Below are positions 8,420-61,100 of a stretch of 64,000 nucleotides of DNA, piece after piece; within the stretch, counting starts at the first letter, position 1, and each line of letters begins with the position of its first letter. The notes under the pieces were generated by a model. The model did no database searches and was not told where the DNA came from. It was given only the letters and a program-made list of their open reading frames with translations. The DNA is from Gammaproteobacteria bacterium (GTDB taxonomy: Bacteria > Pseudomonadota > Gammaproteobacteria > Eutrophobiales > Eutrophobiaceae): contig CBDCDS010000003.1 of the NCBI GenBank assembly GCA_965215365.1, positions 320,001-384,000 on the forward strand. The letters run 5' to 3'. Position numbers and translations under genes: made by a program.

Positions 8420-8477
8420 GTTCAGGCAGAACCAATCTGGCGCGATCTTCGCATCACTGGGTGAGATATGCGGGCTA
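8420..8477 (+). repeat. Solo right end of MITE family A
   Basis: CGCGATCTTCGCATCACTGGGTGAGATATGCGGG identical to 21937-21970; followed by CTAAAAATTTTTAGAGG. Confidence 0.88.
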
Positions 8478-20062: not shown

Positions 20063-20151
20063 TATCCCGCAGATCTCACCAGGTGATGCGAAGATCGCGC
20101 CGGATTGGTTCTGTCTGCGGGTGCCTGCGACGATGAGCATAGCGGTAGCTA
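20063..20151 (-). repeat. MITE A right end (inverted) plus second CATAGCGGTAGCTA repeat
   Basis: CCCGCAGATCTCACCAGGTGATGCGAAGATCGCGCCGGATTGGTTCTG closely matches the reverse complement of 8427-8474. Confidence 0.82.
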
Positions 20152-20260
20152 TGGTTGAGGAAACCCCCCATTTTCAAAAAAATTTCCATTCATAACTCTC
20201 TGTTTCATAAGGAATAACAAAAAAAGTTGCAGTTTTTTTGAAAAAAATTGCATTTTCCTG

Positions 20261-20330: not shown

Positions 20331-20690
20331 ATGAATGTACAAGCCGCAAAATATTTTGAGCCCGTCAGGGAGATTAACACCTTGGCCCTGGAAAACGTTG
20401 AGAAGCTGCTGGACATCCAGCTCAAGTCAATCAACGACACCGCCAGACTGAGCGTTGAGCAGTTAAAAGCCGCAGCCGAGATCAAGGATGTGGATGGCCT
20501 GAAGAAATACTTCACCGATCAGGCTGAAACCGTAAAATCCCTGGGCGAGCGTTTCGTCAAGGACGGCCAGTCTGCGCTGGAACTGGGCGTGAACTACACC
20601 GACAAGGTACAGCAGATCGTCACCGAGACCATCAAGCAGGAGGCTCCCGTCGCGGCAAAGCCCGCCGCTACTGCCGTGAAAAGTAAGTAA
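20331..20690 (+). CDS. Phasin family protein
   Basis: Amphipathic helical 119 aa with Ala/Lys tail; AGGAG RBS; PhaR-like boxes. Confidence 0.8.
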
Positions 20691-20751
20691 GCAAGTAAGC
20701 AACCAAAACCCTCCTCGCCACCGGTTTCTCCCCCAAGGCCGGTGGTCGGTC

Positions 20752-20777
20752 AGCCGCCCGAAAGGGCGGCTTTTTTT
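20752..20777 (+). terminator. Rho-independent terminator
   Basis: AGCCGCCC-GAAA-GGGCGGCT followed by a T-tract. Confidence 0.9.
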
Positions 20778-20780
20778 ATG

Positions 20781-20805
20781 GGCGCCGCTAATTTTTAGAG
20801 GCGCC
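20781..20805. repeat. Short palindromic repeat family B
   Basis: GGCGCCGCTAATTTTTAGAGGCGCC; related copies near 12387, 43787, 43821, 32765, 60508, 8478, 41644, 5255. Confidence 0.7.
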
Positions 20806-20883
20806 TTTGTTTCTACCCTGCTAAAATACACCGCGACACAGTTACGGCAACCTTTGACTTCATCGGCGGTAGTATCCACACTC

Positions 20884-21762
20884 ATGACGTTCCAGCAATT
20901 GATTGCCGCCCTGCAGGCATTCTGGGCTGAGCGGGGCTGCATTATTCAACAACCCTATGACATGGAGGTAGGTGCCGGCACCTTCCACCCGGCTACGTTC
21001 CTGCGCGCCATCGGCCCGGAACCGTGGCACAGCGCTTATGTGCAACCTTCCCGGCGGCCCACTGACGGGCGCTATGGCGATAACCCGAACCGCCTGCAAC
21101 GCTACTACCAGTTCCAGGTGATACTGAAGCCTTCACCTGCCGATATTCAGGAACTGTATCTGGAATCATTGCAACACCTAGGTATTGATATGCTGACCCA
21201 CGATGTGCGGTTCATAGAAGATAACTGGGAATCCCCGACCCTGGGCGCCTGGGGGCTGGGTTGGGAAGTCTGGCTGAATGGCATGGAGATCAGCCAGTTT
21301 ACCTACTTTCAACAGGTGGGAGGGCTGGAATGCAAGCCGGTTTCCGGTGAGATTACTTACGGCCTGGAGCGCATAGCCGTTTACTTGCAGAATGTGGACA
21401 GTGTCTATGATCTGGTGTGGGTGGATGGGGCAAACGGTGCGGTGACTTATGGCGATATCCACCACCAGGATGAGGTGGAAATGTCAGCCTATAATTTCGA
21501 GAAAGCGGATACCACAGCCCTGTTCCGCTGGTTTGATGAATGTGAAGCGCAGTGCTTGAAGCTGGTGGAAGATGACCTGCCCTCGCCCGCCTACGAACTG
21601 GCACTGAAGGCGTCGCACATCTTCAATCTGCTGGACGCCCGACACGCCCTCAGCGTCACCGAGCGGCAACGCTTCATCCTCAGGGTGAGAACCGCAGCCC
21701 GCGCGGTAGCCCGATGTTATTACGACAAGCGAGACGCACTGGGCTTTCCATTGTGCAGATAA
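20884..21762 (+). CDS. glyQ: Glycine-tRNA ligase alpha subunit
   Basis: [31 protein letters not shown]. Confidence 0.98.
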
Positions 21763-21775
21763 TGGCTACCTCTAA

Positions 21776-21970
21776 CCCACATATCTCACCAAGTCGCTTG
21801 TTGCCTTGTGAAACATGATTGCTCTCAATAAGTTATGATAATACTTCTGCTCTTTCCACATAACACACTGCGCTTGATGCGCCCTCGCTGGTCTTTTTTG
21901 ATGCGCCCCAGGGAAGGGGCGCATCAAAAAATCCGCCGCGATCTTCGCATCACTGGGTGAGATATGCGGG
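21776..21970. mobile_element. Complete 195-bp MITE (family A)
   Basis: TIRs CCCACATATCTCACC / GGTGAGATATGCGGG, flanks CTAA / TTAA, internal hairpin TTTTTGATGCGCCCC..GGGGCGCATCAAAAA, no transposase. Confidence 0.88.
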
Positions 21971-24099
21971 TTAAAAAAGATCTGCTGTTTGAAACAGGCA
22001 CGGAAGAGTTGCCGCCGAAGTCCCTGGCCGGTCTGGCCGCAGCCCTGGCCGATGCCGTTCACCAGGGCTTGCTGGAGCAGGAGCTGGAGCACGGCGAGTG
22101 CGCCTGGTATGCCACCCCGCGCCGGTTGGCCGTGATGGTGCGCGACCTGGCGTCGGCTCAGGAAGATAAACAGGTTACCCGGCGCGGTCCGGCCGTTGCC
22201 GCCGCCTATGACGAAGACGGCAACCCCACCCGGGCCGCCCAGGGGTTTGCCCGTTCCTGTGGGGTGACGGTGCCGGAACTGACCCGGCTGGATACGGACA
22301 AGGGCAGCTGGCTGGCGTACCGCAGCCTGGTGCGAGGCGCCGGCGTTGCCGAATTATTGCCTGGTATCATTACCAGGGCGCTCGCCGGCCTGCCCATCGC
22401 CAGACGCATGCGCTGGGGCCACCACGAGGTCGAATTTGTGCGACCGGTGCACTGGGTGGTATTGCTGTTTGGAGCGGACATTATTCCGGCGACGGTGCTG
22501 GGGGTGGCAACGGGCCGGGACACCCGCGGTCACCGCTTTCACCATCCGCAGGCGCTGTCCCTGAGCGAGCCCGGACAATATCTGACCCGGTTGCACGATG
22601 AGGGGCGCGTGGTTGCGGATTTCGACCAGAGGAAGGAACTGATCAGGCAGGCCGTCACGGATACTGCCCAAACCCATGGCGGGCGCGCGCTCATCGACGA
22701 AGATTTGCTGGATGAGGTGACCGCGCTGGTAGAATGGCCGGTGGCCGTTATCGGGTCATTCGACGCGGAATTTCTACACCTGCCGCAAGAAGCGCTGATT
22801 GCCAGTATGCAATCGCACCAGAAATATTTTCCCGTACAAGACGCGGCCACGGGGGAGTTGAGCGCCCGTTTTATCACCATCGCCAATATCGACAGCACCG
22901 ACCCCGATGCGGTCCGGCGCGGCAACGAGCGGGTCATCCGCCCGCGCCTGAGCGATGCCGCGTTTTTCTGGGAGCGCGATCGCGCCAGATTGCAAATCCA
23001 TGCGACCAATACCGCGTCGGCCAAGGCATCACAACCGCCGGTGCCTTCGGACAAGGCGCCGCTGGAACAGCTGGGCGAGACCGATAAGGTGATTTTTCAG
23101 CAACAACTCGGCACGCTGGCGGACAAGACCGCGCGTATCGCCAGCCTGGGCGGATATATCGCACAGCAACTGGGCTTCGCGCCAGACCCGGTCGCGCGCG
23201 CCTCCCGCCTGGCCAAATGTGATTTATTGAGTGCCATGGTCGGCGAGTTCCCGGAGCTGCAAGGCGCCATGGGGCGCTATTATGCCGAAGCCAGCGGTGA
23301 ACCCCCGGCAGTCGCCCTGGCGCTGCAAGAACAGTATATGCCTCGTTACGCCGGTGCTGCGTTGCCGCAGACCGACACCGGCAGGGTGCTGGCGCTGGCC
23401 GACAGACTCGACACCCTGACCGGAATTTTCGCCATCGGCAAAGGCCCCACCGGCGCCAAAGACCCGTTCGCCCTGCGCCGCGCCAGCCTGGGGTGTCTGC
23501 GTATTATGATCGAGTGTGAGTTGCCGCTGGACTTAGAGCGCTGCCTGACGCACGCCGCCGGCGCTTTTCCAGCGGCCGTGAAGGCCACGGCCGTCATCGC
23601 CGACGTGTTTGATTTCATGCAGGACCGGCTGCGGCGCTATTACCTAGATAATGGGGTCGCCCCCGGCGTGTTTGAGGCAGTACAGGCGTGCCGGCCCACG
23701 CAACCCCACGATTTCAACCTGCGAGTGCTGGCCGTGGGCGAGTTTCTGCGCCTGCCAGAAGCCGCCGACCTGATAACCGCCAACAAACGCATCCGCAATA
23801 TCCTCAAACAAGCGCAATTTACCGAACAGGCCGGGCCGGATACGGCAGCACTGGTGGAACAGACCGAACTGGCGTTGTACGAGAAAATGCGCGCCTGCCA
23901 GACGCAGCAGCACGGCACCGGGCACGATTATATCGCCCGCCTGAGCGCACTGGCAGGTCTGCGTGACGATGTGGACGCGTTTTTTGACGAGGTAATGGTC
24001 TTATGCGAAGACACCGCGTTAAGAGCCAACCGCCTGGCCCTGTTAAATGAATTGCGACAACTGTTCCTGACCACCGCGGACATCTCCCGGCTGCAATGA
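21964..24099 (+). CDS. glyS: Glycine-tRNA ligase beta subunit
   Basis: LLFETGTEELP, TPRRL, MRWG, HQKYFP, GEFPELQG, DPFALRR; ATG lies inside the MITE TIR. Confidence 0.97.
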   Translation: MRVKKDLLFETGTEELPPKSLAGLAAALADAVHQGLLEQELEHGECAWYATPRRLAVMVRDLASAQEDKQVTRRGPAVAAAYDEDGNPTRAAQGFARSCGVTVPELTRLDTDKGSWLAYRSLVRGAGVAELLPGIITRALAGLPIARRMRWGHHEVEFVRPVHWVVLLFGADIIPATVLGVATGRDTRGHRFHHPQALSLSEPGQYLTRLHDEGRVVADFDQRKELIRQAVTDTAQTHGGRALIDEDLLDEVTALVEWPVAVIGSFDAEFLHLPQEALIASMQSHQKYFPVQDAATGELSARFITIANIDSTDPDAVRRGNERVIRPRLSDAAFFWERDRARLQIHATNTASAKASQPPVPSDKAPLEQLGETDKVIFQQQLGTLADKTARIASLGGYIAQQLGFAPDPVARASRLAKCDLLSAMVGEFPELQGAMGRYYAEASGEPPAVALALQEQYMPRYAGAALPQTDTGRVLALADRLDTLTGIFAIGKGPTGAKDPFALRRASLGCLRIMIECELPLDLERCLTHAAGAFPAAVKATAVIADVFDFMQDRLRRYYLDNGVAPGVFEAVQACRPTQPHDFNLRVLAVGEFLRLPEAADLITANKRIRNILKQAQFTEQAGPDTAALVEQTELALYEKMRACQTQQHGTGHDYIARLSALAGLRDDVDAFFDEVMVLCEDTALRANRLALLNELRQLFLTTADISRLQ

Positions 24100-61050: not shown

Positions 61051-61100
61051 AAAAAAATCCGGCGCGATGTTCGCGTCGCTTGGTGAGATATGCGGGTTAA
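61051..61100 (+). repeat. Solo right end of MITE family A
   Basis: AAAAAATCCGGCGCGATGTTCGCGTCGCTTGGTGAGATATGCGGGTTAA. Confidence 0.82.

Follow-up and report, generated by a model that had tools for sequence, protein, structure and literature searches.

A miniature transposable element lodged in the first codons of glyS appears to supply the start codon of the gene from its terminal repeat

Several bacterial repeats are described, in the excerpted accounts considered here, as lending start signals to genes or as being tolerated within them. In Acinetobacter baumannii, the outward-facing terminal inverted repeat (TIR) of MITEAba12, a MITE (miniature inverted-repeat transposable element), gave the neighbouring gene the start MQQS in three insertions (Adams and Brown 2019, PMC6382973), and the Neisseria REP2 and Borrelia IR-A/IR-B repeats carry a promoter, a ribosome-binding site (RBS) and an ATG fused to downstream frames and lack inverted ends (Parkhill 2000; Morelle 2003; cited via Delihas 2011, PMC3184786). 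MITEPsy1, described together with ISPsy2 of the IS5 family, is a small, mobile TIR element that makes a 4-nt CTAG or YTAA duplication (Bardaji et al. 2011, PMC3189936), and the Rickettsia palindromic elements and the pneumococcal BOX, RUP and SPRITE repeats are tolerated in frame in coding sequences (Ogata 2000; Croucher 2011; via PMC3184786). Here we describe a 195-bp MITE near the glycyl-tRNA synthetase genes glyQ and glyS in a 64,000-nucleotide stretch (referred to as the window) of contig CBDCDS010000003.1, positions 320,001 to 384,000, from a gammaproteobacterium of the family Eutrophobiaceae. Sequence comparison confirms the MITE as a short jumping element lodged within the first codons of the only glyS gene, and glyS has very probably been rescued by a start codon that the element carries in its end.

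The features of the glyQ-glyS junction, in positions of the window, are as follows.

20854..21762, + strand: glyQ, glycyl-tRNA synthetase alpha subunit, from the list of open reading frames (ORFs), with the stop TAA at 21760-21762
21762..21818, + strand: stranded native glyS ATG with an 18-codon remnant frame, from the ORF list, ending at TGA 21816-21818
21772..21775, no strand: left target-site copy CTAA (family target YTAR)
21776..21970, + strand: MITE copy, 195 bp, skipped in the contigs of sequencing runs X6 and X7
21776..21794, + strand: left TIR, pairing with the right repeat in the RNA fold
21835..21960, + strand: small internal frame of 41 codons, from the ORF list
21894..21931, no strand: perfect 16-bp hairpin with T6 on its 5' side and A6 on its 3' side (stem 21894-21909 / 21916-21931)
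21952..21970, + strand: right TIR with GGTGA at 21956-21960 and the new glyS ATG at 21964-21966
21971..21974, no strand: right target-site copy TTAA, now glyS codons 3-4
21964..24099, + strand: glyS, glycyl-tRNA synthetase beta subunit, 711 codons from the repeat ATG (TIGR00211)

The glyQ frame opens at TTG 20854, and relatives begin at the position of MTFQQL; the glyQ start is likely ATG 20884 (MTFQQLI...), as in relatives. The glyQ stop overlaps the native glyS ATG (21762-21764) in the sequence TAATG, and the frame that opens there reads ATG GCT ACC TCT AA into the element, traverses the entire left inverted repeat and stops at TGA 21816-21818. At the other end of the element, GGTGA is followed by GAT and then by ATG 21964-21966, which opens the 711-codon frame beginning MRVKKDLLFETGTEELP...; an in-frame TGA (21958-21960) lies just 5' of this ATG. 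The inverted arms at 21773-21794 and 21952-21973 are 22 nt long and 91% complementary, and the two target-site copies, CTAA on the left and TTAA on the right, are alike at three of four letters. An earlier note on this DNA, made from the letters alone, had described the TAATG overlap at 21760-21764 with the codons that follow it, the 195-bp element, the GGTGA-GAT-ATG of the right TIR in frame with glyS (MRVKKDL), and the single base by which the flanks differ; every letter of the overlap holds, a recount of 21776-21970 agrees with the length, and the start and the flanks are as it described them.

Several features point to the repeat ATG as the glyS start. The 711-residue protein matches TIGR00211 at 802.8 bits, with residues 6-710 aligned on model positions 1-684. 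The next in-frame ATG, GTG or TTG after 21964 is the TTG of codon 16, which lies inside the conserved EELP motif, and a start there would remove the conserved KDLLFETGTEE. The 16S rRNA tail reads ...GGATCACCTCCTTA, and GGTGA pairs with its UCACC; the 16S duplex predicted within the 20 nt before ATG 21964 is -8.3 kcal/mol, as against -1.5 before the old ATG 21762, and only 16% of the 1167 long ATG frames of the genome have a duplex as strong as that of glyS. By alignment to the 16S tail, the spacing between GGTGA and the ATG is equivalent to ~6 nt from a GGAGG core. Because the duplex before the old ATG is so weak, the native start would lack a Shine-Dalgarno (SD) sequence and rely on the overlap with glyQ.

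GlyRS is indispensable, and glyS gives a single hit in this genome (97.6% complete), with no dimeric GlyRS above the cut-off. Most of the homologues whose starts were inspected have 3-6 residues before the conserved DLL, and among the 111 motif-readable sequences of the 120 best homologues these residues vary freely, so that a swap of MATL for MRV should be harmless. The only repeat-type starts in those 111 are the MRVKK protein (711 residues) and an MRIEEK protein (695 residues), both of which are included in public gene calls. From these sequence features we infer that ribosomes initiate at 21964.

Empty alleles of the site are present in public data. Contigs of four sequencing runs, X1 (study P1), X5 (P2), X6 (P3) and X7 (P4), were aligned to positions 21500-22300. 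X6 and X7 have one contig each in which 21771 is joined to 21973 with only 'TA' between them, skipping 21772-21972; these contigs differ at 10 of 272 letters to the left of the junction and at 3-5 of 328 to the right (~97-98% identical), which places them at about species level relative to the genome of the window (G000; 2.7 Mb, in a three-contig assembly). The empty allele reads MATLKKDLL, and its length is that of the filled allele minus the element and one 4-bp flank. In X1 and X5, contigs run from glyQ into the element (21500-21809) with zero differences, and an X1 contig runs from the element into glyS (21945-22300), also with zero differences; the contigs of these filled runs have single-copy depth in the flanks, and none in X1 or X5 bridges the empty site. 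In the sister species G006, the closest in the genome set (90% identity in the first 179 residues), the TAATG overlap is present and the start of glyS reads MTTLKKDLL. Empty alleles in relatives had been anticipated in the earlier note, and they occur both in the X6 and X7 contigs and in G006; its reconstruction of such an allele as MATSKK, by removal of the element and one 4-bp flank, is right in length and wrong in residues, the real alleles being MATL-KKDLL.

Across the 22 genomes of the genus with a readable junction, the full element is found only in G000 and a solo repeat in G010, and the remaining 20 have native starts (MY-, ML-, MH-, MR-KKDLL from a GTG, MSEN-, MTD-, MTET- and MAAA-). 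No repeat-free relative starts with MRV, the case that the earlier note had named as telling against it. The glyS start overlaps glyQ or lies at most 5 nt past its stop in 17 of the 21 other genomes, and the gap in G000 is 201 nt; longer gaps are seen in G010 (17 nt), G014 (20 nt), G003 (92 nt) and G001 (152 nt). The 92- and 152-nt spacers of G003 (locus L037) and G001 (L045) are probably other inserted repeat DNA; in G001 the spacer contains small inverted repeats and glyQ is ~11 codons longer. G014 (L046, on the minus strand of the locus) reads ATC-ACT-GAC at the place where relatives read ATG-ACT-GAC (MTDKKDLL), with a GAGGA before it and the glyQ stop 20 nt upstream, and there is no in-frame ATG, GTG or TTG between an upstream TAA and the conserved DLL; this glyS may use a non-canonical ATC (or ATA) start, or the ATC may be a sequencing error. 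Within the genus, change is concentrated at the glyQ-glyS junction.

The solo repeat in G010 amounts to a second case in the same gene. The G010 glyS (66% identical at its N-terminus) has a 17-nt repeat identical to the family end, beginning 7 nt after the glyQ TAA, which puts its ATG 17 nt past the glyQ stop; next comes a TTGA flank, and the gene reads MRIEEKDLL. G003 and G001, which share the IGAEELP motif of G010, have native MTD- and MTET- starts, and the insertion point differs between the G010 and G000 genes. Our reading of the G010 gene is that an insertion independent of the one in G000 took place near codon 2-3 and that the remainder of the element has presumably been deleted since. 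As its MRIEEK start carries a solo family repeat, this relative supports start donation and does not refute it. Elsewhere in G010 there are 36 matches to a 14-nt repeat pattern (at most one mismatch) and none to a control pattern, and the ten long frames in the ATG phase recovered from that genome include glyS, a phosphomannomutase-like gene and a TrmB-like gene (N-termini read by eye), together with the orthologue of an MFS gene that also has a repeat start in G000. We also note that orthologous MFS genes begin at a repeat ATG in both species, at G000:C3:2262967-2264115 (MRARALCAIFAC...) and at locus L091 of G010 (MRVNKALFAIFAC...); this shared start is either an old shared insertion of which the end was kept, or a recurrence.

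The glyS element belongs to a large family. It matches 85 places in its own genome, and its 15-nt repeat end occurs 297 times in G000 with at most two mismatches, 139 of these being exact. A YTAR sequence flanks 226 of the 297 ends (TTAA 84, CTAA 59, TTAG 58, CTAG 25), both ends of the MITE carry an SD and an ATG, and the family is present in 21 of 23 genomes of the genus. There are 67 pairs of ends less than 400 bp apart, of which 43 are spaced 238-239 bp. The glyS copy is a short-centre variant of this ~239-bp family, sharing positions 1-121 and the last 42 with the usual copies and having its 16-bp perfect hairpin where these have a longer central one; one further copy, on contig C1, has a related centre. 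The longest internal frame of the glyS element is 41 codons, and no parent insertion sequence with the same ends was found in G000, where seven end pairs lie 700-3000 bp apart and none of their longest frames, judged by eye, is transposase-like.

Thirty-five stand-alone copies have a TA core in both flanks; the flanks match each other at position 1 in 26 of these, at position 4 in 25 and over the full four letters in 19, indicating that the target duplication is the 4-bp YTAR, partly decayed since. An IS630-like duplication of TA only, with A...T element ends, was considered, since several flanks differ at position 1, and was rejected as the general rule: complementarity between left position 4 and right position 1 (19 of 35) is at the level of chance, and the agreement at positions 1 and 4 speaks against it. 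YTAR is the target of the IS5 family. The 4-bp YTAR duplication therefore suggests IS5-like target behaviour, in agreement with the CTAG and YTAA targets given for MITEPsy1 in the available part of its description (PMC3189936). With terminal inverted repeats, many copies, small size, a target duplication and an empty site, the glyS element is filed as a MITE with IS5-like target behaviour.

Other copies show further variation. Head-to-tail arrays of 2-3 copies with a single YTAR (or CCAG) between them (G000:C3:785021-785743, 664072-664637, 1858935-1859659, 104497-105221 and 178766-179489) look as though new copies had repeatedly inserted next to a resident one, in its flank. At the prlC, metF, glyS and hldE copies (G000:C3:628316, 1992127, 341964 and 1243001), one flank copy often deviates from the ancestral target of relatives, mostly Y for Y at the base adjoining the repeat and, at hldE, R for R at the fourth base; these deviations may reflect decay or a donor-site base carried over. 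The 135-bp radA copy (G000:C3:1872221-1872355) has CCAG and CTAA flanks, which are not a simple duplication of the G006 site, and CCAG or CTGG stands in place of YTAR at ~25 of the 297 ends, where it may point to another class of target or to a repeat variant of greater length. A 34-bp element at G000:C3:564807-564840 consists of little beyond two back-to-back terminal repeats, and the ATG that it directs outward shares the reading frame of an HMG-CoA lyase gene, of which the real start is probably M12. The window itself contains four more partial family copies (618-671, 8423-8474, 20066-20162 on the minus strand, and 61056-61097), one of them ~170 bp upstream of a phasin-like gene at 20331-20690.

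The glyS gene is one of many genes started by this MITE family, which the earlier note overlooked. The genus-wide extent of repeat starts was assessed in one whole genome (G000) and in 30 loci of G010. In G000, the open frame was measured outward from every one of the 297 repeat ends, and the frames of at least 150 codons are distributed as follows.

190 ends keeping the ATG: ATG frame 34, frame +1 6, frame +2 2
107 ends without the ATG: ATG frame 8, frame +1 11, frame +2 1

Frames in the +2 phase are few because the TAR of the target closes them. The excess in the ATG frame is evident both between ends with and without the ATG (Fisher p = 0.0015) and between the phases (34 versus 6, binomial p = 8e-6). 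The 38 ATG-phase frames that reach 100 codons were all compared with the NCBIfam models, and the next possible start was sought in each. Twelve of the 38 have a model alignment that begins at residue 2-10 and a nearest alternative start 14-65 codons downstream; these well-supported cases are GlyS, oligopeptidase A, HldE, RadA, an FAD oxidoreductase, BamB, MetF, two CinA-like paralogues, DeoC, HisB and RppH, so that by sequence at least 11 housekeeping genes besides glyS would use a repeat start. ArgD, MreD, TolB, RegB, an MFS transporter and TIGR04282 are ambiguous, and 11 of the 38 have no family match in the NCBIfam scan. Half elements are not enriched among these genes: 16 of the 38 repeat-started frames have no partner repeat within 420 bp, as compared with ~163 unpaired ends of 297 genome-wide.

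When the element and one flank are removed in silico, short native starts come back into frame, for example in prlC (MSNPLL), radA (MTTKTRARK) and rppH (MPKRDSQ). The native starts of five of the genes were also compared in five relatives each.

prlC: relatives MSNPLL or MTNPLL; G000 MRVNPLL
radA: relatives MTKTRARKQYQC (MTKTRARK); G000 MRAKARKQYQC
hisB: relatives MSNNRQAAV; G000 MRARQAAV
hldE: relatives MQTTIPNSFIPGEH (MQTTIPNSF); G000 MRANSFIPGEH
metF: relatives MTSNRLPRHSLKLSFEFF (beginning MTSNRLPRHSLKLSF); G000 MRAKLSFEFF

In at least six conserved genes, 2-11 native N-terminal residues, start included, have been replaced, and that the change went in this direction is proved by the sites left intact in relatives.

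The reading that we consider very probable is as follows. A non-autonomous MITE with an IS5-like YTAR target inserted, within the species, in a TTAA spanning glyS codons 4-5, severing the body of glyS from a native start that had no SD and depended on the TAATG overlap. The 15-nt element end reads outward as GGTGA-GAT-ATG-CGG-G, and its ATG is in frame past the 4-bp target copy, so that GlyS would be made as MRV-KKDLL... and not MATL-KKDLL..., a change in the freely varying part of the protein. An essential gene present as a single copy would retain only those insertions that place the ATG in frame, and the frame would thus reflect selection, not aim. As a portable start for translation, the repeat would allow the family to settle at the 5' ends of genes. 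The proposal in the earlier note that the insertion is tolerated through an outward start codon gains support from the empty alleles and from the lack of another usable start.

Some observations weigh against this reading. No single contig spans the whole element in the filled runs, and the filled state is given by the junction contigs and the three-contig assembly; a spanning contig is missing because contigs built from short reads break at repeats. Nor do the flanks represent a clean duplication: the left copy is CTAA where TTAA is expected, two adjacent letters differ from the empty allele, and at least two further mutations must be assumed there. The RNA of 21755-21995 is predicted to fold at -88.4 kcal/mol (z = -7.3) with the terminal repeats paired, which buries the GGTGA and the ATG. 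Beyond glyS, the models for HMG-CoA lyase, MetZ, LipA, Lnt, HlyD and GspK start well downstream of the repeat ATG, making an internal start as likely or more likely, and the frame bias is weaker in G010, where 10 of 30 fetched ends have a frame of at least 100 codons in the ATG phase and 6 of 30 in frame +1. The absence of a spanning contig and the very high copy number of the repeat would both suit an artefact, in which the element was misassembled into glyS, or in which MRV is ancestral and resembles the repeat by chance. Contigs from two studies nevertheless run from glyQ into the element, and those of X1 also from the element into glyS, without differences and, in the flanks, at single-copy depth; the empty site is bridged by none of the X1 or X5 contigs, the empty allele is common to G006 and the X6 and X7 contigs, and the 15-mer has 297 genomic copies, all of which makes an artefact extremely improbable. 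It is also very unlikely that GlyS starts elsewhere, whether at a downstream or non-canonical codon or at the old ATG with the element crossed by read-through or a frameshift. The predicted base-pairing of the SD and ATG of the repeat would favour such a start, and non-ATG codons do occur at the start position in the genus (the ATC of G014), but the old frame runs into TGA 21816-21818 with more stops beyond, a start at codon 16 deletes KDLLFETGTEE although the model aligns from residue 6, and the repeat ATG sits at the N-terminus of the model in 11 other frames.

Insertion followed by rescue from the element end could have been reached by more than one path through the flank mutations. We favour one in which the TTA codon had already become TTT when the element inserted into a TTAA target, with a later T-to-C change in the left copy; this takes two substitutions and leaves the gene viable throughout. 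A path through the TCT allele of the earlier note fits too, at the cost of three substitutions. A further path would begin with an out-of-frame insertion into the ancestral TTAA with its run of seven As, bridged by leaky frameshifting on the A-run and rescued by the loss of one A. The empty alleles and G006 do have TT plus seven As, the filled allele has TT plus six As to the right of the element, and a clean insertion into the ancestral site puts the repeat ATG out of frame by one base and leads to a stop after ~10 codons. This path is nonetheless improbable: its intermediate would be lethal or very sick, the gene being essential and single-copy, and it takes two indels, leaves the extra C of the left flank unexplained, and does no better than the two-substitution path, which fits equally well and is viable at each step.

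How the rescued gene is expressed bears on its link to glyQ. A new promoter inside the element was considered and finds no consensus match: no sigma-70-like site is present on either strand of 20600-22200, a weak negative from a consensus scan only, with 0.8 sites expected. The earlier note had pointed to the hairpin between the subunit genes and to termination as something to look for; a terminator reading of the hairpin does not hold, as the stem is preceded by the T-run and followed by the A-run whichever way it is read, leaving no 3' U-tract, and a terminator scan called no + strand terminator inside the element. With the hairpin not a terminator, co-transcription of glyQ and glyS is the default expectation. 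The same note held that glyS is uncoupled from glyQ, which is so only in the literal sense that TAATG now leads to an 18-codon remnant; coupling could instead be relayed, as the predicted fold suggests.

In such a relay, a refinement that we regard as possible and no better than tentative, the glyS start would be hidden in the repeat-repeat stem, which by itself would hinder initiation at 21964, and would be opened by ribosomes that restart at ATG 21762 after glyQ; translation of the 18-codon remnant across the left repeat would then keep glyS tied to glyQ over the 201-nt gap. The fold pairs 21773-21794 with 21952-21973, covering the SD and the ATG, and the remnant frame (21762-21818) covers the whole left arm and retains the TAATG overlap. 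The geometry is forced in each in-frame rescue, since the phase in which the old frame reaches the left flank equals that in which the new frame exits the right flank; the old frame enters a canonical left end as ..AAC CCG CAT ATC TCA CC.. and meets a TGA ~43 nt inside. The second small frame (21835-21960) ends at a TGA overlapping GGTGA, 3 nt 5' of the new glyS ATG, a geometry that suits termination-reinitiation before that ATG. In canonical copies, the internal ATG of the 21835 frame is read in another phase, ending at the TAA or TAG of the target flank. On the other side, the relay is drawn from structure prediction, the 16 of 38 repeat-started frames lacking a partner repeat would have no stem, and the solo repeat in G010 is likewise stemless. 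It is conceivable, if rather doubtful, that the terminal repeat has evolved as a portable translation-initiation module with a built-in relay, which in either orientation can restart a gene. If so, the relay module would pass the original translational control, including the coupling of glyS to glyQ, through the element, and would explain how a single family came to take over the starts of at least a dozen housekeeping genes in a genome of 2.7 Mb, and that of glyS on two independent occasions.

The first codons of essential genes are usually deemed closed to transposons; here they would be occupied because the element end is itself a start site. The locus offers a natural within-species pair of filled and empty alleles for an aminoacyl-tRNA synthetase gene, and a testable model of mobile DNA replacing, and perhaps relaying, translational coupling in an operon whose two products are needed together. 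At least 12 conserved genes have annotated N-termini (MRV.. or MRA..) that appear to be transposon-derived, which bears on start annotation and on the alignment of orthologs.

A full-text literature search returned no description of a MITE supplying the starts of essential genes at such a scale. In its transposition behaviour, MITEPsy1 is the nearest described relative of the glyS element; as far as the excerpted report goes, it is 100 nt long with a different repeat sequence, its insertions in genes shift the frame and yield new or inactive alleles, and start donation is not among the effects reported (PMC3189936). The Rickettsia and pneumococcal repeats add residues inside proteins or at their ends, and the excerpted review does not describe them as replacing the initiation regions of essential genes (PMC3184786). 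The fusion of an RBS and ATG to a downstream frame, known from REP2, is found at glyS as GGTGA-N3-ATG, whereas a promoter of its own is not; REP2, by the same partial account, has no terminal inverted repeats or known transposition signature and lies upstream of genes (PMC3184786), in contrast to the classical transposon with TIRs and target-site duplication that sits within the first codons of glyS and replaces the native N-terminus. MITEAba12 resembles the glyS element in being non-autonomous and multi-copy, with a TIR that supplies the first codons of a neighbour, and in the part of the report available its three fusions include none in an essential housekeeping gene and outward promoters are stressed (PMC6382973); the glyS element differs in having an SD and ATG in both ends, at least 12 conserved genes started from it, empty alleles and no promoter-like site, and the two are unrelated in sequence and target. 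The kind of event is thus not new, REP2 and the three MITEAba12 fusions having preceded it; what is unusual is its scale, its essential targets and its independent recurrence at glyS.

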